Source: Minisyncoccota bacterium
GTDB lineage: Bacteria > Patescibacteriota > Minisyncoccia > Phycocordibacterales > UBA1550
Direction: 5' to 3'
Assembly: GCA_041660105.1 (NCBI GenBank)
Contig: JBAZWZ010000003.1
Span: 25,527 to 89,526, forward strand
Length of the DNA stretch: 64,000 bases
Each line of letters opens with the position of its first letter. Positions within the stretch are counted from its first letter, which is position 1. Below the pieces are notes generated by a model. It made no database searches, was not told where the DNA came from, and saw only the letters and a program-made list of their open reading frames with translations. Positions 5,366-62,207 of this stretch are shown in pieces. A program made the translations under genes and the position numbers.

Positions 5366-5830
5366 TTATTTTAGAATATCATCATCCTTATCCTTTCCTG
5401 TTTTACTTTTTTCTTCTGATTTTTGGGCTCCACGTACATCAAGGTTGAAAGATGCACTTGATAATTTCCCCATCGAAACGGAAGGTGTCGAGACTGGTTG
5501 TGAGGGGAGGAAGTCTTCCTCTTTTCCAGCCTTCGGCTCCGCAGTGGTCTTTTTCCACGTGTAAAGTTTGTCGTGGATCAGATAATTGAAGGCAGCCTCA
5601 AGGATTTCAATAAACGGCTTGCCAAGTTTTTCTTTTGGATAGAACGCGAGTGCCCACGTGAGCAAGGCAATACCAAAAATTATTGGGAATTTTATTGCCG
5701 CGTAAGGAATGATACGCCAAATAAGATAAATACCACCTCCTCCGCCAGCCACATAAATCGCTTGCTTCAAAGTAAGCGGGCCAAAGAGCTTGTCCTCGAT
5801 GTCGATGTATTGAGGAATATGGAATTGCAT
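5366..5830 (-). CDS. PrgI/ConD-like (VirB3-like) small two-TM T4SS membrane protein.
   Basis: Sequence MQFHIPQYIDIEDKLFGPLTLKQAIYVAGGGGGIYLIW... followed by two TM helices. The track ORF begins at an alternative TTG (5845). The ATG at 5830 gives a PrgI-family N-terminus. Confidence 0.55.
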   Translation of the reverse strand: MQFHIPQYIDIEDKLFGPLTLKQAIYVAGGGGGIYLIWRIIPYAAIKFPIIFGIALLTWALAFYPKEKLGKPFIEILEAAFNYLIHDKLYTWKKTTAEPKAGKEEDFLPSQPVSTPSVSMGKLSSASFNLDVRGAQKSEEKSKTGKDKDDDILK

Positions 5831-5838
5831 AGGTCTAT

Positions 5839-5873
5839 TATACAACTAACCACCAACAACTAACAACTAACAA
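5839..5873. repeat. Heptanucleotide-repeat module tatacaactaaccaccaacaactaacaactaacaa (CAACTAA variant), immediately upstream of the prgI-like start, with TATAAT in between.
   Basis: Read directly. On the coding strand it reads GTTAGTTGTTAGTTGTTGGTGGTTAGTTGTATAATAGACCT-ATG. Confidence 0.8.
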
Positions 5874-5885
5874 AAAATTAAAACA

Positions 5886-12066: not shown

Positions 12067-14301
12067 TTACCAGTCACTGCCACCACCAGACGAAGGTGTT
12101 GGAGTAATTTTTACTGTTATTGACTGCTCTACTTTCCCAGGGGGTGTTAGTCCTGGTTTTGCAATTGGACCATAACAAACAAGGGTAACAACGGCTGGAG
12201 GATTTGAGGGGGTTGTGACAAATCCTGTGTTGGTCCCCTCCATTCGGGTCCCATCACCAGCTTCGACAGTAATTGTTGATGTAGTGCCCCCTGAATCTCC
12301 GAATCCTGGGTTGGTCACCGTTCTTTGTTCACTGTGTTTTGGTACCTGAGAGCCTACATAGCCAGGCTTTACACGCGCTTTTCCTTGAGCCGTGACACTA
12401 CCAAGAAGCCCTCTTACGGAACTCCATGTTGTGGTTGCGGTTTCTCTCTCATCAAATATTTCAAGATATGCATCTGCTCCAATCTTACAACTGGAAGCAT
12501 TTGAAGCAGCCCAGCGAATTTCCGACCAATCACCAACCTTTGCTTCGGCAATAGCATCTGGGTCTGCTTTGAATTCCTCAATTTCTGGAGGGGCGTTATA
12601 GAGACCCCCTGATGTGTCAAGTCGAAGATCTCCCCAGTTTGTCACTGTGTATCCAGCACCAACGCACTTAAACTCCAAATTAACTTTTGTTGAAACACCA
12701 CTAACAAATTTCAAAGTTACAGAATCATCAAACAATACACGTGATGTGCTCGAAATTGGAAACGAGTCATTTTTTTCAAAAGGGGTTTCACTACTTCCTT
12801 GGACCGCCAAAGCCTTCCCATCGAGAACCTTGATAACACAACTATCTGCATCTTTGATTTTCCACCAAATCGTACCAATTTCATTTCGTGCGATAACTCC
12901 ATCATTTGGTGTTGTTCCTACGGTTATCTTTGGTCCCGGAGTTCCTGTTCCTACGGTTATTGGTTCAACTGATGATGAGTTCCAGTTGAGAAAATGTGAG
13001 GCGCTGTTCGTAGTTCCGCCCCCTGAGCACTTAATAATAAACTCAACATTGTTGTCATTCCCGCTTATCTTTACCTTCCAGGACCCCGACATTGATGGAA
13101 GCGCCTGCGTAAATCCTGAGTATGTTGACCCATAAGTGTTTGTTTTTCCGTCTGCGAGGACAACGGTTATCTGCCTCATATTTTGTATGGTGCAAGAGGT
13201 TGCCTCTGTTACTTTCCAAGACACCGTCGAGGTTTCGCCAAAACCGATCGTATCGGGGCTCATAGTAAGACTGATTTGTGGACCAACAGGGTTTGTGCTT
13301 GTTGCTGTATAGCTTGTTGAATTGGTTGTATTTGTTCCACTCCCTGTGTTTGTCCCACTGCCTGTATTCGTACCACTACCACTTCCGGTGTTCGTCCCAC
13401 TTCCTGTGTTTGTGCCACTCCCACTACCTGTATTTGTACCGCTACCTGCATCTGTGCTTGCTCCTACGGCAACTCGAATACAAGCCGATTTTTCAAACAA
13501 TGTTGAGCTTTTTTGAGCAGTCTGACAGTCACTGCTGGAGAGGAATGTTGAAGTTTGAAAAGGAGTATTTGGTCCTGCGTCAGCTTTCCCTTTAAAAATG
13601 TATACATATTTGTCAGAGCTTCCTGTGGTTGTTGGCTTCACGATACCGATAGTAACTGATTTTTTTGCAGTGCCGTTTGCTCCCGTACAGCTAATATCGA
13701 AAGTATAAGGTGTTTGAGGCGAAACAGTTTTGGTCCCTGTTAGTCGCAGTGTGTTGCCTGCCCCATCAACACATCTTGTTGTATTGAGTGTCGTCCAAGA
13801 AATTATTGACTGAGAATTTGCCTTGACCTCAATAGGAAAAGCAGTGATGTTTATGATTGGATATGTCGTAACAGCAACCTTGATTGATTGAATAGTTGTA
13901 CCTTTTGGATTTGTGCATACAATATCCATTGTGTAGTCTTCCCTTGGAGTTATGGAGAGACTGCCATTCAGGCGAAGGGCGTTACCGTTACTGTCTGCAC
14001 AGCTCGTTGCATTTGTTGAGTTCCAGGAAATAATAGCTGATTGCCCAGGAGAAACGACAGGTACATCTGCGGACACGGTAACAAGTGGAACAACAAGGTT
14101 TTGGGAACTCGTCGACACACCTTCTGTAGGAGTCGGAAATGAGTAAGTATCTTTAACTTGCCCAGTTTGACCTTCGTTTTGAGGCGCAACCGCCCCTCTT
14201 GTGTAAATAAACACAATCGCAATAATAACAACAAGCACGATAAGACCAATAATAAGAAACTTTTTTTTCTTCTCGTCCTGCATAATATTATTTATGTCCA
14301 T
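12067..14301 (-). CDS. Large N-terminally anchored surface protein with duplicated Ig-like domains and a (GSGTNT)n low-complexity linker.
   Basis: 744 aa with an N-terminal TM (FLIIGLIVLVVIIAIVFIY). Two homologous roughly 75-aa domains (ISWNSTNATSCADSNGNALRLNGSLSITPREDYTMDIVCTNPKGT / ISWTTLNTTRCVDGAGNTLRLTGTKTVSPQTPYTFDISCTGANGTAKK). Linker GSGTNTGSGSGTNTGSGTNTGSGSGTNTGSGTNTGSGTNTT. Confidence 0.55.
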   Translation of the reverse strand: MDINNIMQDEKKKKFLIIGLIVLVVIIAIVFIYTRGAVAPQNEGQTGQVKDTYSFPTPTEGVSTSSQNLVVPLVTVSADVPVVSPGQSAIISWNSTNATSCADSNGNALRLNGSLSITPREDYTMDIVCTNPKGTTIQSIKVAVTTYPIINITAFPIEVKANSQSIISWTTLNTTRCVDGAGNTLRLTGTKTVSPQTPYTFDISCTGANGTAKKSVTIGIVKPTTTGSSDKYVYIFKGKADAGPNTPFQTSTFLSSSDCQTAQKSSTLFEKSACIRVAVGASTDAGSGTNTGSGSGTNTGSGTNTGSGSGTNTGSGTNTGSGTNTTNSTSYTATSTNPVGPQISLTMSPDTIGFGETSTVSWKVTEATSCTIQNMRQITVVLADGKTNTYGSTYSGFTQALPSMSGSWKVKISGNDNNVEFIIKCSGGGTTNSASHFLNWNSSSVEPITVGTGTPGPKITVGTTPNDGVIARNEIGTIWWKIKDADSCVIKVLDGKALAVQGSSETPFEKNDSFPISSTSRVLFDDSVTLKFVSGVSTKVNLEFKCVGAGYTVTNWGDLRLDTSGGLYNAPPEIEEFKADPDAIAEAKVGDWSEIRWAASNASSCKIGADAYLEIFDERETATTTWSSVRGLLGSVTAQGKARVKPGYVGSQVPKHSEQRTVTNPGFGDSGGTTSTITVEAGDGTRMEGTNTGFVTTPSNPPAVVTLVCYGPIAKPGLTPPGKVEQSITVKITPTPSSGGGSDW
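13330..13450 (-). repeat. In-frame imperfect 18-nt tandem repeat tract encoding (GSGTNT)n inside the surface protein gene.
   Basis: Direct reading shows repeated acc/act-ccx-gtg/gta-ttt-gt units. The opposite-strand ORF 13322..13516 translating VFVPLP repeats is its shadow. Confidence 0.7.
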
Positions 14302-14323: not shown

Positions 14324-14559
14324 GTATACCCCCACACCTACTTTTTGCATAGTAAGTTATACACAGAAATGTATTTAGAGAACAACCGTCCTAAATACAT
14401 AGTGTGGTGGCGACGTAAAAGTAGGTGTGGGGGTGTACCCCCTGCCCAGTTCTCTTGCCTACTTTTTGCATAGTAAGTTATACACAGAAATGTATTTAGA
14501 GAACAACCGTCCTAAATACATAGTGTGGTGGCGACGTAAAAGTAGGTGTGGGGGGTATA
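14324..14559. repeat. Composite palindromic repeat of 1.7 units. The TIR is GTATACCCCCACACCTACTTTT, followed by a 70-bp core, the inverted TIR, a linker, and a second core plus inverted TIR.
   Basis: Read directly. 14324..14438 is TIR-core-TIR'. 14457..14559 repeats the core and right TIR. The whole block recurs in inverted orientation at 18555..18787. Confidence 0.85.
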
Positions 14560-18554: not shown

Positions 18555-18787
18555 GTATACCCCCACACTTACTTTTTGTATAATAATTATCTACAAAATT
18601 TAGTAGAAACATATTAAACCCGTTCATCTAATGATTGCCTATGCAAAAAGTAGGCAAGAGAACTGGGCAGGGCGTACACCCCCACACCTACTTTTACGTC
18701 GCCACCACACTATGTATTTAGGACGGTTGTTCTTAAAATACATTTCTGTGTATAACTTACTATGCAAAAAGTAGGTGTGGGGGTATA
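18555..18787. repeat. Inverted copy of the 14324..14559 composite repeat. One unit has a different core (core Y); the other is 99% identical to the 14324..14438 unit.
   Basis: The reverse complement of 18673..18787 matches 14324..14438 with a single mismatch. Linker cccctgcccagttctcttgcc is shared. Same TIRs. Confidence 0.85.
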
Positions 18788-18820
18788 GCAGAATCAAGGA
18801 GGGTCTGCCCGCTGAACTAA

Positions 18821-31385: not shown

Positions 31386-31501
31386 GTATACCCCCACACC
31401 TACTTTTAACGCAAACAATTTTGTGAAACATTGAATGCACTATTAGTTATCTTGATTTGTGTATCATAATGACTTTAGTAAAAGTAGGTGTGGGGGTATA
31501 C
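31386..31501. repeat. Third member of the TIR-bounded palindromic element family (same 22-bp TIRs, unrelated core), abutting the xth start.
   Basis: gtatacccccacacctactttta...taaaagtaggtgtgggggtatac read directly. The xth ATG lies 10 bp downstream. Confidence 0.8.
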
Positions 31502-54386: not shown

Positions 54387-54492
54387 AATTCTCCCACAGT
54401 GCAAAGCGGCTTCGCGAGAAGCCGCTTTTTATTTTGTATAGACCTAAAGCATTCTCTATATAGAAATATTTTGTTATACTAACAATGAACAG

Positions 54493-54588
54493 GTGACCAA
54501 TGACACCGCTTTCGCGGACAAGTGACTTGGAAACTTTTTGCGTCGCGAAAAGTTTCCGTCAAATGTTAATTGTCAATCGTCAATTGTC
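54493..54588. promoter_or_regulatory. pilB upstream module: the conserved box ACACCGCTTTCGCGGACAAGTGAC, the palindrome GGAAACTTTTTGCG-TCG-CGAAAAGTTTCC, and degenerate TCAATTG/TCAGTTG heptads.
   Basis: Read directly. The architecture is the same as the modules at the 5' ends of the three pilin genes. Confidence 0.7.
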
Positions 54589-54597
54589 CCACCCCCC

Positions 54598-57845: not shown

Positions 57846-57993
57846 GACAACTGACCACTAACACCGCTGCGCGGACAACTGACAAGAATGCAAAATACAC
57901 AACTGACAATTAACAAAGAACAACTGACAATTAACCAACAGATTTTCGCTACGCGAAAATCTGCCGTCAGTTGTCAGTTGTCAGTTGTCAGTT
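57846..57993. repeat. Pilin-1 5' module: the ACACCGCTGCGCGGACAACTGAC box, CAACTGA-type repeats, the palindrome CAGATTTTCGC-TAC-GCGAAAATCTG (57929..57953), and (GTCAGTT)x4 (57956..57985).
   Basis: Read directly. It overlaps the start of the pilin-1 ORF. Confidence 0.85.
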
Positions 57994-58433
57994 GTTCTCT
58001 GCGTCGGGGGTACACCCTCCTTGAGCTTCTCGTTGTCATCGCCATCCTCGGCCTCATAATGGCAATAACTATCCCTTCCTTTTCGGAGTTTCGACAAAAC
58101 AGCGCTTTGAACGCCGACACAATGAATGTCATAACGCTTATCAACAGAGCACGACTTCTCTCAGTGTCTGACAAAGGAGATAAACAATACGGCATTTATC
58201 TATCCTCTACTTCATCGATTTTGTTTGCGAGTTCAACCTTTGCAAGTTCCGCAACATCAACAAGAGAAACATATACATTGAGCAGTGGGATAACTATGTC
58301 AGGGACTGCTTCGGAAATTGTATTTGCAAAGGTTACCGGCGTTGCAAGCACGGCAGCAACCACAACCCTCCTCGGCACGACCTCAAGCACAACAATATTA
58401 ATATACCCAACGGGTATCGCTACTATTAAATAA
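57888..58433 (+). CDS. Type IV prepilin-like protein 1 (class III signal G|YTLLE plus a hydrophobic helix), with an unusually long repeat-encoded leader.
   Basis: ...SVVSCSLRRG|YTLLELLVVIAILGLIMAITIPSF. The leader MQNTQLTINKEQLTINQQIFATRKSAVSCQLSVVSCSLRRG is encoded by the heptad/palindrome module. An alternative in-frame TTG would give an 11-aa leader. Confidence 0.7.
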   Translation: MQNTQLTINKEQLTINQQIFATRKSAVSCQLSVVSCSLRRGYTLLELLVVIAILGLIMAITIPSFSEFRQNSALNADTMNVITLINRARLLSVSDKGDKQYGIYLSSTSSILFASSTFASSATSTRETYTLSSGITMSGTASEIVFAKVTGVASTAATTTLLGTTSSTTILIYPTGIATIK

Positions 58434-58450
58434 GGAGTAGAATATAATAA

Positions 58451-58594
58451 GAACAACTGACAACTGACAACTGACACAAAACAAAATGCAACAAAAACAA
58501 CTGACAACTGACAAAGAACAAATTACACACAAGCAGCGGATTTTCGCTACGCGAAAATCCGCCGTCAGTGGTCAAATGTCAGTTGTCAGTTGTG
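58451..58594. repeat. Pilin-2 5' module: (CAACTGA)x3, then (CAACTGA)x2 inside the start of the ORF, the palindrome CAGCGGATTTTCGC-TAC-GCGAAAATCCGCCG (58534..58564), and degenerate GTCAGTT repeats.
   Basis: Read directly. Confidence 0.85.
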
Positions 58595-60108
58595 CTCGCG
58601 CTACGCGCGGCTTTGGCCTCGTAGAAATAATTGTCGCCGCATCTATCCTTTCAGTCTCGATGCTCGCCATCTCCACTTTTTTCCAGTCGACGCTCAAGAT
58701 GAGTAGAACCATCGAAACGCAAAACCAATCGAACTACCTTCTCGAGGAAGGGGTTGAGGCTGTTAAGATTTTTCGTGATATGAGTTATGCTAATAACATT
58801 CTCAAGATAGCGACGTCTTCCCCGAGCTATTTTGTTTGGAACAGCACAGGTTCTACCTGGGCTACCTCGACCGTGAACGCTCTTATTGATGGCAAATATG
58901 AACGCAAAGTCACCTATGAGGATGTATTGCGCGACAACACAACGCACGATATTTCCACATCGACATCAGGGACCACTTACGATCCCAATGTGCGCCTCGC
59001 GACAGTATCGTTGTCATGGCTGTCAGGGACAACAACCGCAGGGCTCCTTTCTTCATTGGGAACTATTGCGATAGGGTCAGGAAGTAGTAACACTACTGAA
59101 TCAGGGATAGTTGTTTCTCCAGATGGCAAATACGCATACGCACTAAGAAGCAATGCTAACCTGGTATATATGTATAGTGTCAGTACAACCACAGGAGCTT
59201 TGATTGCGCTCGGGACTCCCACGGTTGCCACGGGAACAACACCAAAATCATTGATCGTATCACCTGACGGAAAGAATGTGTATGTTGCCAACTTCGGCTC
59301 CAACAATATTACTCGATATAGTCGCAATGTAAGTACGGGGGAGCTGTCATCTCTCGGGACTTCTTCCACGGGCTCATCGTCGGGGCCAACTTCAATTATC
59401 ATTTCACCAGACGGGTTGTCGGTGTATACATTGGACGATACCGCAAATAATATTTACAAATACACGCGCACGAGTTCTGGCGGACTAAGCTCGGGTGGTG
59501 CAGCAATTACGGTTACGATCACGTGTCCGTGTGGGTTCGCTATTTCTCCCGATGGCAACTCCGTATACTCAGTTGCTTCTGCGGGGACTGATGTATTTTC
59601 TCAATTTACACGTAGCACGAGCACGGGTGCCCTCTCGAGCAAAGTCGCCGTATCGCTGGCTACTAGCACGGCTCCATATTTTGGCGTCGCTGTTTCTCCT
59701 GACGCTTCTTTTGTGTATGCAACAAACAACGCAAACGACAGTGTTTCAATGTATAGCCGCGCCACGAGCACGGGGGCTCTCACGCTTCTCAGTCCTGCTA
59801 CTGTAGCCACAGGTGATCAGCCTCTGGGGATTGCCATCTCTCCCGATAATTTCTCTGCGTATGTGGTAAACGCTGGCAGTAACACGATTTCACAGTTCAG
59901 CCGTAATGTTACTACGGGGGTTCTTACTCCACTAAGTACTGCTACTATTGCGACAGACTCCATCCCAAACACAATAGCAAATACTCCTGATGGCCATTCA
60001 GTGTATGTGATAAATAGGTCGAGCGCCCTGATTTCAATGTATAGTCGTGACCCTGGGTTGACTGTTAAGACCATACAGACCTATATAACGAATATTTTTA
60101 CTAATTAA
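58486..60108 (+). CDS. Type IV prepilin-like protein 2 fused to a 7-bladed YVTN-type beta-propeller (candidate pilus-tip adhesin).
   Basis: Leader ...MSVVSCARATRG|FGLVEIIVAASILSVSM. Seven repeats of the form (V/I)SPDGxxxYVxNxxxNxIxxYxR (e.g. VSPDGKNVYVANFGSNNITRYSR). Confidence 0.7.
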   Translation: MQQKQLTTDKEQITHKQRIFATRKSAVSGQMSVVSCARATRGFGLVEIIVAASILSVSMLAISTFFQSTLKMSRTIETQNQSNYLLEEGVEAVKIFRDMSYANNILKIATSSPSYFVWNSTGSTWATSTVNALIDGKYERKVTYEDVLRDNTTHDISTSTSGTTYDPNVRLATVSLSWLSGTTTAGLLSSLGTIAIGSGSSNTTESGIVVSPDGKYAYALRSNANLVYMYSVSTTTGALIALGTPTVATGTTPKSLIVSPDGKNVYVANFGSNNITRYSRNVSTGELSSLGTSSTGSSSGPTSIIISPDGLSVYTLDDTANNIYKYTRTSSGGLSSGGAAITVTITCPCGFAISPDGNSVYSVASAGTDVFSQFTRSTSTGALSSKVAVSLATSTAPYFGVAVSPDASFVYATNNANDSVSMYSRATSTGALTLLSPATVATGDQPLGIAISPDNFSAYVVNAGSNTISQFSRNVTTGVLTPLSTATIATDSIPNTIANTPDGHSVYVINRSSALISMYSRDPGLTVKTIQTYITNIFTN

Positions 60109-60109
60109 T

Positions 60110-60228
60110 ATGAAAAAACAATTGACATGAAACAACTGACAACTGACAAAAAACAATCGACATGGGCCCAGCGGATTTTCGCTACGCGAAAATCCGCTGT
60201 CAGTCGTCAGTCGTCAGTTGTCAGTTGT
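60110..60228. repeat. Pilin-3 5' module: (CAACTGA)x2, the palindrome CAGCGGATTTTCGC-TAC-GCGAAAATCCGCTG (60169..60199, a perfect 14-bp stem), and GTCAGTC/GTCAGTT repeats.
   Basis: Read directly. Confidence 0.85.
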
Positions 60229-60735
60229 GCGCGTACCCGCGCCTTCACCCTCGTTGAGATGATCATCTACGCAGCTATTTTTTCATTCATCTCCATCGTT
60301 GCGGTCAATGGAGTCATCGTGTCGATGAAGTCATTTTATAATATTCGTCTTTCTCAAAATATAAATCAGTCTGCGACGGTCGCAATGGACCGTATGGCGT
60401 ATGAGATTCGTAATGCATACAATATTGACAGCACAAACAGCACCCTCGGGACAAGCCCAGGCAGACTTACGTTGCTCACAGAAGACGCTAACGGGAATAG
60501 CACTACCGTTGAGTTTTATGTTATTGCAAATCAACTAAATATGAGGGTAGGCGGGGTAGATCAGGGACCGCTTCTTGTGAAGACATCCATATTGACCAAT
60601 CTTATTTTCCTGCCAATCACTACGCCAAATTCTAAGGCGGTAAAAATAGAAATGACTGCGCAAGATTCGCGCCAGGATGCTACAAAAACAGCAAAGTATT
60701 ATGATACAATAGTATTGAGGGGTTCGATCCACTAA
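60127..60735 (+). CDS. Type IV prepilin-like protein 3 (pseudopilin-like).
   Basis: Leader MKQLTTDKKQSTWAQRIFATRKSAVSRQSSVVSCARTRA|FTLVEMIIYAAIFSFISIVAV. 202 aa. Confidence 0.65.
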   Translation: MKQLTTDKKQSTWAQRIFATRKSAVSRQSSVVSCARTRAFTLVEMIIYAAIFSFISIVAVNGVIVSMKSFYNIRLSQNINQSATVAMDRMAYEIRNAYNIDSTNSTLGTSPGRLTLLTEDANGNSTTVEFYVIANQLNMRVGGVDQGPLLVKTSILTNLIFLPITTPNSKAVKIEMTAQDSRQDATKTAKYYDTIVLRGSIH

Positions 60736-60747
60736 TTTATTATATTT

Positions 60748-62124
60748 ATGCCCAAGAATAATCAATACACTGTCTCATACAAACGTGGCGCAGCGGTCAT
60801 AACGGTAGTTTTGTTCTTTGTAATTATTGCCACAACCGTTTTACTTGGGGTATCGTCTCCAGTTGTAAGCGAATATAAAACTGCGCGCGATCTCGGTAAT
60901 TCAAAGAGTGCGTACTATCTGAGCGAGGCCGGACTCGAGGATGTTATGTATCGAACAATGAAAGCAATAGGGATAACTTCCCCTGTCATCCTCACGCTTG
61001 GGGGCAATATTGCTACGACGACGGCGACAACAGTGAGTTCGAGCGAAGTGACAGTTTCATCAGTGGGGGATGTGAAGACCAACATCCGCAAGATTGGCGT
61101 GACACTTTCGACAGGAGTAGGAAATGAATTCTTTTACGCACTCCAAGCTGGAGGGGGCGGGATAAATATGGCAACAAGTTCAGTTATCAATGGCAACGTA
61201 TTTTCAGACGGGCATGTTTGCGGGGCAGGTATTGGAAATACTTATTGTGACACAGCAGATTCAAACGGAATAACTGAGCAGAGTACGATAACAGGCACGG
61301 TGGTTTCTCGTGGGACAACAGGCCTCAATGGAACTATAAATAGAATTATAAACACAATAGAAGGAGCTTCAATGCATGCGGGGAATATTACAAACGCGTT
61401 TATTATGGGAAGTCCATATTGCACTACAAATTATAATTCAAGTCCGCCTGGGTGCGAGACGCTTGTTGCTCAGCCACAAGCAGACGCGCCAATTTCAGAT
61501 GCCGATATCACTGCATGGAAAAACGCAGCAATTGCTGGGGGGAATGAAGAGTGCGACGGGGCTGCCTATACAATAGCTGAAGACGCAACGGATTTGGGCC
61601 CCAGAGTAATTCCTTGCAATCTGGTTATTGACGGAAGCAGTGGCACGGACACTGTTACTCTCAAGGGACCTGTTTGGGTAAAGGGAAATATAACCATAAG
61701 GAGAAGCCTTATTATTAAAGTTGATCCAGCGCGCACAGGGCAGAGTATGGTGATGATAGCGGACAAGGAGTCTGATCATACCAATAGTAGCAGGATAATA
61801 TTGGAAGGCAATTCCAATTCAAGAGTTTTTGATGGAGCAGGAGAGAATTCGTGGGTTATGCTACTTTCTCAAAATGATAGTGCTTATAACAGTGGCGCGG
61901 TCATAGCAATCGATGCCCAAGGGAACACAAGTGGAGATGTGATCCTTATGGCACTAAAAGGGCAAGTCCAACTTTTCGATGCTTCAGTAGCTAGTATCAC
62001 CGCGTACTGGATATCAATCCTCGCTGACGGAGTTGTAAATTATTCGATGGGCATGCAGAGTGCACTCTTTTATTCTGGACCCGCTGGCTCGTGGAATACA
62101 ATGGATTGGAGGTTGGGACAGTAA
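60748..62124 (+). CDS. PilX-N-like pilus assembly/minor pilin protein with a large Gly/Thr/Asn-rich C-terminal domain.
   Basis: RGAAVITVVLFFVIIATTVLLGVSSPV resembles the PilX N-terminal TM segment. No G|FTLxE site. 458 aa. Confidence 0.5.
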   Translation: MPKNNQYTVSYKRGAAVITVVLFFVIIATTVLLGVSSPVVSEYKTARDLGNSKSAYYLSEAGLEDVMYRTMKAIGITSPVILTLGGNIATTTATTVSSSEVTVSSVGDVKTNIRKIGVTLSTGVGNEFFYALQAGGGGINMATSSVINGNVFSDGHVCGAGIGNTYCDTADSNGITEQSTITGTVVSRGTTGLNGTINRIINTIEGASMHAGNITNAFIMGSPYCTTNYNSSPPGCETLVAQPQADAPISDADITAWKNAAIAGGNEECDGAAYTIAEDATDLGPRVIPCNLVIDGSSGTDTVTLKGPVWVKGNITIRRSLIIKVDPARTGQSMVMIADKESDHTNSSRIILEGNSNSRVFDGAGENSWVMLLSQNDSAYNSGAVIAIDAQGNTSGDVILMALKGQVQLFDASVASITAYWISILADGVVNYSMGMQSALFYSGPAGSWNTMDWRLGQ

Positions 62125-62126
62125 GA

Positions 62127-62207
62127 ACAACTGACATCTGACAACTGACAACTGACGCGGGAGAAAATACGGGCGGAACCTTCGGTTCCGCCCGTATTTT
62201 CGCACCC
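62127..62207. repeat. Heptad tract acaactgacatctgacaactgacaactgacg, followed by a terminator hairpin (gaaaatacgggcggaaccttcggttccgcccgtattttc) at the 3' end of the pilus locus.
   Basis: Read directly, between the PilX-like stop and tpiA. Confidence 0.8.

Follow-up and report, generated by a model that had tools for sequence, protein, structure and literature searches.

The heptamer array at 5839-5873 of the window (by which we mean the whole stretch of 64,000 nucleotides, or 64 kb, that was analysed) and its near-identical twin at 51044-51077 are probably, at a likelihood that we place somewhat above even from sequence comparison, a lineage-specific heptamer microsatellite that now makes up the -35 and spacer half of two predicted promoters, rather than a conserved operator. 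The CAACTAA/CAACTGA array would be a recent, lineage-specific expansion in a Candidatus Paceibacterota genome that came to lie, at 5839, right beside an ancestral -10 box in the leaderless promoter of a prgI-like gene, where it would form the upstream half of the predicted promoter, and the twin would stand in the same relation to the TATACT box of a gene for a coiled-coil protein. The array is a variant of an already known class of heptamer repeats, the TAACTGA type. The two arrays, the genes downstream of them and the predicted promoter elements are as follows.

5366-5830, minus strand: prgI-like gene (Pfam PrgI, PF12666, E = 5e-7), downstream of the 5839 array.
5837-5842, minus strand: -10 box TATAAT of a predicted promoter of the leaderless type, 6 nt before the prgI-like ATG (5830).
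5839-5873, minus strand: solitary heptamer array under study; plus strand CAACTAA CCACCAA CAACTAA CAACTAA, gene strand (TTAGTTG)n.
5861-5866, minus strand: -35-like TTGTTA from a repeat unit, 18 nt from the TATAAT box.
50090-50986, minus strand: gene for a 298-aa protein with a signal peptide and no Pfam match; "secreted coiled-coil" is the label predicted for it in the initial annotation.
51042-51047, minus strand: -10 box TATACT of the coiled-coil protein gene, with a -35-like TTGTCA (51066-51071) within the twin array.
51044-51077, minus strand: solitary twin array in spacer 50987-51148; plus strand CAACTAA CCACTGA CAACTGA CAACTGA, gene strand (TCAGTTG)n.

Both arrays, tatacaactaaccaccaacaactaacaactaacaa at 5839-5873 and tatacaactaaccactgacaactgacaactgacg at 51044-51077, read as earlier reported and lie upstream of minus-strand genes. 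The former takes up most of the 55-nt spacer (5831-5885) between two T4SS-like genes and precedes a gene whose product is 100% identical to "PrgI family protein [Candidatus Paceibacterota bacterium]"; ahead of this gene, its own strand carries ...GGTTAGTTG-TATAAT-AGACCT-ATG, which bears out the initial annotation in placing a TATAAT between array and ATG. Tandem Repeats Finder assigned a period of 7 to both arrays, with 4.6 copies at 5839 and 4.3 copies at 51044. The near-identity that had been claimed for the twins also holds, as 51044-51077 matches 5839-5872 at 29 of 34 positions and lies upstream of the gene for the 298-aa signal-peptide protein. Three of the five mismatches are A/G differences at the same position in three successive units, the pattern expected from homogenisation of units within an array, and 15 identical bases are common to both twins at the junction of array and -10 box. 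CAACTGA occurs 36 times in the window, 3.5-fold above shuffled sequence (10.2 ± 3.5; 0 of 100 shuffles reached 36). The near-identity of the twins and their likeness to arrays at the pilus genes (see below) would most likely reflect the spread of one unit within the genome, with slippage homogenising the units inside each array.

Matches to the consensus suggest that both arrays may take part in promoter activity: a scan called TTGTTA-18-TATAAT (5839) and TTGTCA-18-TATACT (51044), each at 10 of 12 positions and within the 16-18 nt spacing of sigma-70-type promoters. As the arrays read (TTAGTTG)n or (TCAGTTG)n on the gene strand, every unit holds a TTGTTA or a TTGTCA, and the scan also called TTGTCA-18-TATATT on the minus strand of the array at 58454, though there is no gene to drive there; the -35-like match is thus an automatic property of the unit near A/T-rich DNA. 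At 15 or more genes in the window the ATG is preceded at 6-8 nt by a -10 box, frequently with a TGn extension, a leaderless pattern into which the TATAAT-AGACCT-ATG of the prgI-like gene fits; examples are the genes at 12067, 14606, 16934, 18821, 38654, 41039, 48637 and 62232. Leaderless mRNAs seem to be the main mode for operon-first genes, with a GGAGG-type site in a minority only, and no GGAGG-like motif was found before the ATGs of the prgI-like, coiled-coil, ppa, pilB and pilin genes, whereas other genes in the window have one. CPR genomes are very small, and that of the window's host is presumably so as well.

Comparison with relatives bears on the age of the arrays. For the prgI-like locus, four distinct sequences from eight loci (L154-L161, protein identity 76-81%), possibly from outside the heptad-rich subclade described below, all keep a TATAAT or TATACT box close 5' of a conserved ATGCAATT start, the distance to the ATG being 6-8 nt in three of the four and larger in L154/L155; none has heptads upstream of the prgI-like gene. 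A further relative (L121-L123) is syntenic with the window (coiled-coil gene, ppa, nusA, pilB, pilC, three pilins, a 448-aa gene and TIM). Upstream of the coiled-coil gene, L123 has TATACTAATAGA where the window has TATACTATTAGA, with the TATACT(A/T)TAGA block kept and heptads absent, and in the spacer between the 448-aa gene and TIM it keeps the terminator and the promoter, again with heptads absent. Since -10 boxes are kept and heptads are absent in these relatives, the boxes would be ancestral and the arrays recent in the window's lineage. An operator array is recognised by a site conserved at orthologous promoters, and this site is missing from the prgI-like promoters of L154-L161 and from the coiled-coil promoter of L123. 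At 5969-5988 of L156, (ATTCCAT)x2.9 lies just upstream of GGGGTATACT-ATTATT-ATG, before a different T4SS gene, a second case of a heptad array 5' of a leaderless promoter in a T4SS operon.

A census of the 64-kb window returned 12 period-7 arrays of at least 2.5 copies, all in six of 47 spacers or in the first ~110 nt of three pilin ORFs on a rough gene map, and none inside gene bodies. The arrays are non-random and lie at gene 5' ends, and to this extent the initial annotation is supported. The remaining features outside the pilus genes are listed here.

51087-51123, no strand assigned: bidirectional terminator-like hairpin between ppa and the twin array.
51694-51725, minus strand: degenerate forward array of the CAACTGA family, gene strand CCTAACA CCTAAAA GCTAACA GCTAAAA, ~9 nt 5' of the ppa ATG.
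62127-62201, plus strand: solitary array, CAACTGA CATCTGA CAACTGA CAACTGA, right after the stop of gene 60748-62124, followed by a terminator hairpin (62163-62201).

Two units of the array at ppa, a housekeeping gene, are also kept in L123. Read on the minus strand, in the same sense as the twins, the 62127 array has no gene downstream; at its position L127 has heptads of another unit and L123 has none. Orientation is mixed, being reverse at the prgI-like and coiled-coil genes and forward at pilin2 and ppa, and the arrays at pilin2 (58454; 12 nt before the ATG), pilin1, pilin3 and ppa obey a forward-before-start rule to which we return below. An Rfam scan of the entire window returned only four tRNAs. 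Several arrays adjoin GC-rich hairpins or terminators (51044, 62127 and, in L127, 2627 and 7150), a setting that we infer to be compatible with an origin by slippage at stalled replication forks. The microsatellite would also have colonised a 3' spacer (62127) and, in a form conserved in the clade, the leaders of pilus genes.

The window holds a second repeat family, GTGTGGGGGTATAC, with 7 copies against 0.08 expected, in pairs ~100 nt apart that are mostly inverted. Its sites (14324-14554, 18555-18788 and 31386-31501) overlap the -10 boxes of several genes, and 14337-14554 is a 121-nt tandem duplication (1.8 copies, 100% identity).

The pilus genes carry the heptads in a different arrangement, as the following leaders illustrate.

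54492-54589, plus strand: pilB 5' leader; degenerate forward heptads, hairpin GGAAACTTTTTGC-GTC-GCGAAAAGTTTCC, reverse heptads ending 9 nt before the ATG (54598).
57846-57995, plus strand: pilin1 leader; forward heptads, hairpin AGATTTTCGC-TAC-GCGAAAATCT, (TCAGTTG)4; ORF from ATG 57888 with a 41-aa leader ending RRG|Y.
58453-58596, plus strand: pilin2 leader; 5' UTR (CAACTGA)3 after TATAAT 58444-58449, ATG 58486, two forward units, the same hairpin, reverse arm; leader ends TRG|F.
60110-60228, plus strand: pilin3 leader; 6-codon uORF (60110-60130) whose TGA overlaps the pilin ATG (60127), forward units, the same hairpin as in pilin1 and pilin2, reverse arm.

The CAACTGA unit occurs at the T4SS-like, coiled-coil and pilus loci of this genome, so that the proposed link of all three by one repeat family stands. 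It had been said to build the modules at pilB and at all pilin genes, which is accurate for the three pilins and only loosely so for pilB, where the units are degenerate (CAGGTGA, CCAATGA / TCAATTG, TCAATCG). The pilus arrays are, on the other hand, not the promoter modules they had been taken for: at pilB and the three pilins, forward units (CAACTGA, CAATTAA and others) and reverse (TCAGTTG)n form inverted arms round a central hairpin of ~23 nt, GGATTTTCGC-TAC-GCGAAAATCC, situated in the 5' UTR of pilB, after a TGn-TATACT -10 box (54475-54480), and in the leader ORFs of the pilins. The motif TTTTCGC-NNN-GCGAAAA is found only at these four genes. The pilB and pilin regions fold at -35 to -55 kcal/mol (z -4 to -8), the long pilin hairpins at about -55 (z -7 to -8).

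The pilin ORFs, which NCBI annotates alike (P0001, 181 aa, a 100% match that is likewise named Candidatus Paceibacterota), have their ATG either in the 5' arm or ahead of it. They cross the entire palindrome and reach the prepilin cleavage motif (RG|Y, RG|F, RA|F), so that the leaders measure 39-42 aa (spans 57888-58010, 58486-58611 and 60127-60243). Within them, every in-frame TGA/TAA slot of the heptads has lost its stop (GAA, CAG, GAA, AAA, CGG) while out-of-frame slots keep theirs, and non-coding arrays keep stops in 3-4 successive units. The uORF at pilin3, ATGAAAAAACAATTGACATGA, begins 1 nt past the pilin2 stop, its TGA overlapping the pilin3 ATG as ATGA, and a second one, ATGAACAGGTGA (54485-54496), begins 4 nt past the -10 box of pilB and has a heptad TGA as its stop; these tiny uORFs suggest coupling by termination and reinitiation at pilin3 and pilB. 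Pilin2 (58486-60108) is a 540-aa protein in which a prepilin N-methylation motif is fused to a lactonase-type seven-bladed beta-propeller, and it may act as an adhesin or enzyme carried on the pilus; in L123 the positional orthologue has only 186 aa. P0023, a pilin from a different MAG, has a near-identical leader.

In a Paceibacterota subclade, pilB and pilin genes consistently come with period-7 arrays, and there the heptad-encoded prepilin leaders are unusually long at 19-53 aa (window; L123, L126, L127, L134, L135), and more distant pilins have 4-12-aa leaders with no period-7 signal. In 13 distinct array-bearing leaders, drawn from five species, the last 90 nt ahead of the cleavage codon contain 3 in-frame stops versus 15 and 13 in the other frames (P = 0.002), and 11 of the 13 have no in-frame stop at all. 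The depletion of in-frame stops, along with the edited in-frame slots, indicates that the leaders are under selection for translation. The pilus form of the microsatellite consists of inverted heptad arms round a small GC hairpin, residing in the 5' UTR of pilB and in long prepilin ORFs that selection keeps open.

What relatives share at these genes is the period and the position, and not the unit. At the same pilus genes they carry unrelated units, namely CTTTCAA / ATTCGAT (pilB), CAATTAA, GAATATG with TCCCCAT, and TAGAATA with ATTCAAA, as well as GTCAATG / GTCAAAT, GTCACAT / GTCAAAC, ATTCAAC and CTTTCCA. One recognition sequence runs across the pilus genes in the window (CAACTGA), whereas each pilus gene has its own unit in L123, L127 and L134, and the arms of the leaders are complementary despite the different units. 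That pilus genes of several species have all kept arrays suggests that something about them is selected. The asymmetry of G.U pairs gave no sign of selection on a hairpin in the sense RNA, as in 13 of 15 leaders the better fold, with more G.U pairs, is that of the antisense strand, and this argument for a selected sense-RNA structure was dropped. An inverton was rejected in that the segment between the arms is itself palindromic, so that its inversion changes almost nothing, and a MITE or REP-like element in that the central hairpin is found only at the four pilus genes and solitary arrays lack a conserved core.

A conserved period with a unit sequence that is irrelevant would suit contingency (phase-variation) repeats, in which 7-nt slippage would shift the frame between ATG and mature pilin, or modulate promoter strength, and thereby switch surface structures. 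The unit length is not divisible by 3, the pilin arrays sit in a cleaved leader where sequence may vary, and the genes concerned are surface-appendage genes. In Neisseria, the opa genes carry phase-variable CTCTT repeats in the region coding for the leader peptide. For HMW1A/2A of H. influenzae, 7-bp repeats in the promoter are reported to be phase-variable. The window resembles both systems in that surface-structure genes have, in the promoter or 5' coding region, a repeat whose unit length is no multiple of 3, but its arrays are far shorter and their copy number was not seen to vary. In the L123 species, six assemblies obtained from different samples (L121-123 and L128-130) have identical arrays, the arrays are short (2.6-5 units) and the 5' arms are interrupted by the stop-avoiding substitutions. 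Moreover, since the array itself supplies the -35 at both flagged promoters, gain or loss of a unit would, as we reason, leave the spacing unaltered. We regard phase variation as unlikely on these grounds. For the window genome itself, Logan unitigs from the same sample (L124, L162, L163) match it at 100% identity but are interrupted within the arrays.

Heptamers of this kind are known from other organisms. MacGregor (2015) described direct TAACTGA repeats in sets of 2-6 copies, intergenic and, in most cases, oriented forward only a few nt from a start codon, where a Shine-Dalgarno (SD) sequence is missing. These repeats are found in Beggiatoaceae, Cyanobacteria and Bacteroidetes; the genes downstream showed no functional pattern, and the paper proposed that the repeats act in translation (PMC4679880). 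In its Table 3, that paper lists CAACTGA, translated as QLTTDN / SVVSCQL; the pilin leaders of the window have exactly these peptide motifs. The twins share with these repeats a unit at most one substitution from TAACTGA (CAACTGA itself being one base away), 2-6 copies, an intergenic position near start codons without SD and an occurrence across distant phyla. They differ in being reverse and upstream of a -10 box instead of forward a few nt 5' of a start codon, and in their CPR host, which is not reported there; the pilin arrays of the window differ further in being inverted pairs that are translated.

To place the arrays in a wider context, we scanned one genome per species for the exact 2.5-unit CAACTGA pattern TGACAACTGACAACTGAC and obtained at least 120 stretches against roughly 17 expected by our own arithmetic, the matches listed being from Cyanobacteria, Planctomycetota, Acidobacteriota, Bacteroidota, Poribacteria and others. 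Among these matches, 107 loci were usable, and a long ORF starts within 60 nt in the forward sense only at 58 of them (median gap 16 nt), in the reverse sense only at 4, in both at 4 and in neither at 41. The excess of 58 forward over 4 reverse loci among the matches listed marks CAACTGA arrays as normally a pre-start-codon element, a rule from which the twins, reverse and upstream of a -10 box, depart. There was no enrichment of a -10 box immediately 5' of forward arrays of other phyla among the same matches (2 of 104 versus 1-4 in controls). CAACTGA arrays in these loci (L001-L120) are often embedded among other heptads (GGGGACT, GGTCATT, TTGGTTA, CAACGGA and others), and often a reverse array is followed by a forward array just before the ATG, an arm order opposite to that of the window's pilins.

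For Nostoc, Elhai reportedly described in 2008 hairpins of the small dispersed repeat (SDR) type that lie within tandem heptamers. The ~23-nt hairpin of the window is likewise embedded between heptamer arrays, but it is not dispersed, occurring at only four pilus genes and always in-frame within an ORF or in a 5' UTR. Cyanobacterial STRR heptamers, which Mazel is said to have reported in 1990, form a further parallel. Among long SSRs, heptamers are the most abundant class and an origin by polymerase slippage has been proposed (Mrazek 2007, as summarised in another paper). Many unit types coexist per genome in both the long SSRs and the STRR heptamers, as they do in the L001-L120 loci, whereas the window has short arrays of 3-5 units, clustered at one gene class.

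This comparison also bears on the common regulator or regulon that the initial annotation had derived from the shared unit. Such a regulator would bind tandem CAACTGA/TCAGTTG and co-regulate the T4SS, pilus and secreted-protein genes. The unit is indeed common to all three loci here, two arrays overlap a -35 region, and the 15 identical bases across the twins' -10 junction could be a copied functional module and not the outcome of neutral spread. Heptads are bound by regulators elsewhere, examples being TTTTGAT at the ctxAB promoter and SARP heptamers, and a Nostoc preprint reports that deletion of a heptamer repeat alters recF/recO reporter expression and recO promoter activity, by a mechanism that is left unresolved there. 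Yet the heptads are absent at the orthologous promoters of L154-L161 and L123, and the unrelated units at the pilus genes, differing from gene to gene in L123, make a common sequence-specific regulator unlikely. The pilin arrays are inside a translated ORF and not a promoter, the orientation is mixed, a degenerate array precedes the housekeeping gene ppa, and the TAACTGA/CAACTGA family is widespread over phyla, the genes downstream of TAACTGA lacking a functional pattern (PMC4679880). The geometry of DNA adds to this. With a 7-bp period, successive sites face different sides of the double helix. The proposal of a common regulator is therefore poorly supported and we consider it improbable, though a regulator confined to this one genome may exist.

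The opposite strand offers a reading that we hold to be just as doubtful, in which RNAs transcribed forward from symmetric A/T boxes (TATTAT/TAGTAT on the plus strand) would start with (CAACUGA)n and pair with the (UCAGUUG)n arms of the pilins. Forward arrays start 1-10 nt after a -10 box at pilin2, pilB and the pilB of L123, two solitary forward arrays are followed by strong terminator hairpins, stretches of up to 28 nt are perfectly complementary to the pilin 3' arms, and arrays of other phyla are nearly always forward relative to the downstream gene among the matches listed. Those same matches show, however, no -10 enrichment 5' of the arrays, the solitary arrays are absent in L123, the L127 arrays beside terminators are not complementary to its pilin arms, and the 5839 copy is without a terminator. 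Slightly less probable still is the specific form in which an ~80-nt RNA of (CAACUGA)n and terminator (51047-51125, the terminator being at 51088-51122), together with the 3' UTR at 62127, would pair with the (UCAGUUG)n arms that sequester the starts of the pilin mRNAs, coupling T4SS, secreted protein and pilus post-transcriptionally. Finally, A/C-rich forward heptads that load ribosomes in place of a Shine-Dalgarno sequence, as proposed for TAACTGA, would agree with the 58 forward-only versus 4 reverse-only ORF starts among the matches listed, with the lack of a visible SD at the array-bearing genes of the window and with the arrays at pilin2, pilin1, pilin3 and ppa, but such an initiation pad is very improbable for the flagged twins, which are reverse and upstream of a -10 box and so would be outside the mRNA of their genes.

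The lineage-specific microsatellite is thus the reading that we retain. The analysis demonstrates the sequence, period and positions of the arrays, their absence from orthologous promoters, the matches to the promoter consensus and the upkeep of the leader ORFs, from which promoter activity, an origin by slippage and any effect on expression are inferred. Heptamers beside start codons have been reported since 2015, and they now extend to CPR. Two points are new: the strong orientation bias of CAACTGA arrays across many phyla, among the matches listed, and a clade in which ribosomes appear, from the reading frames, to translate the heptads as 19-53-aa prepilin leaders, the sequence being edited at in-frame stop positions only. 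If the repeats do tune or switch pilus and secretion genes, they would provide a rare handle on gene regulation for uncultivable organisms; if neutral, they would illustrate cleanly how microsatellites colonise promoters and cleaved leader peptides; and if the reading by forward RNAs were true, they would make up a repeat-based RNA network in a CPR bacterium.
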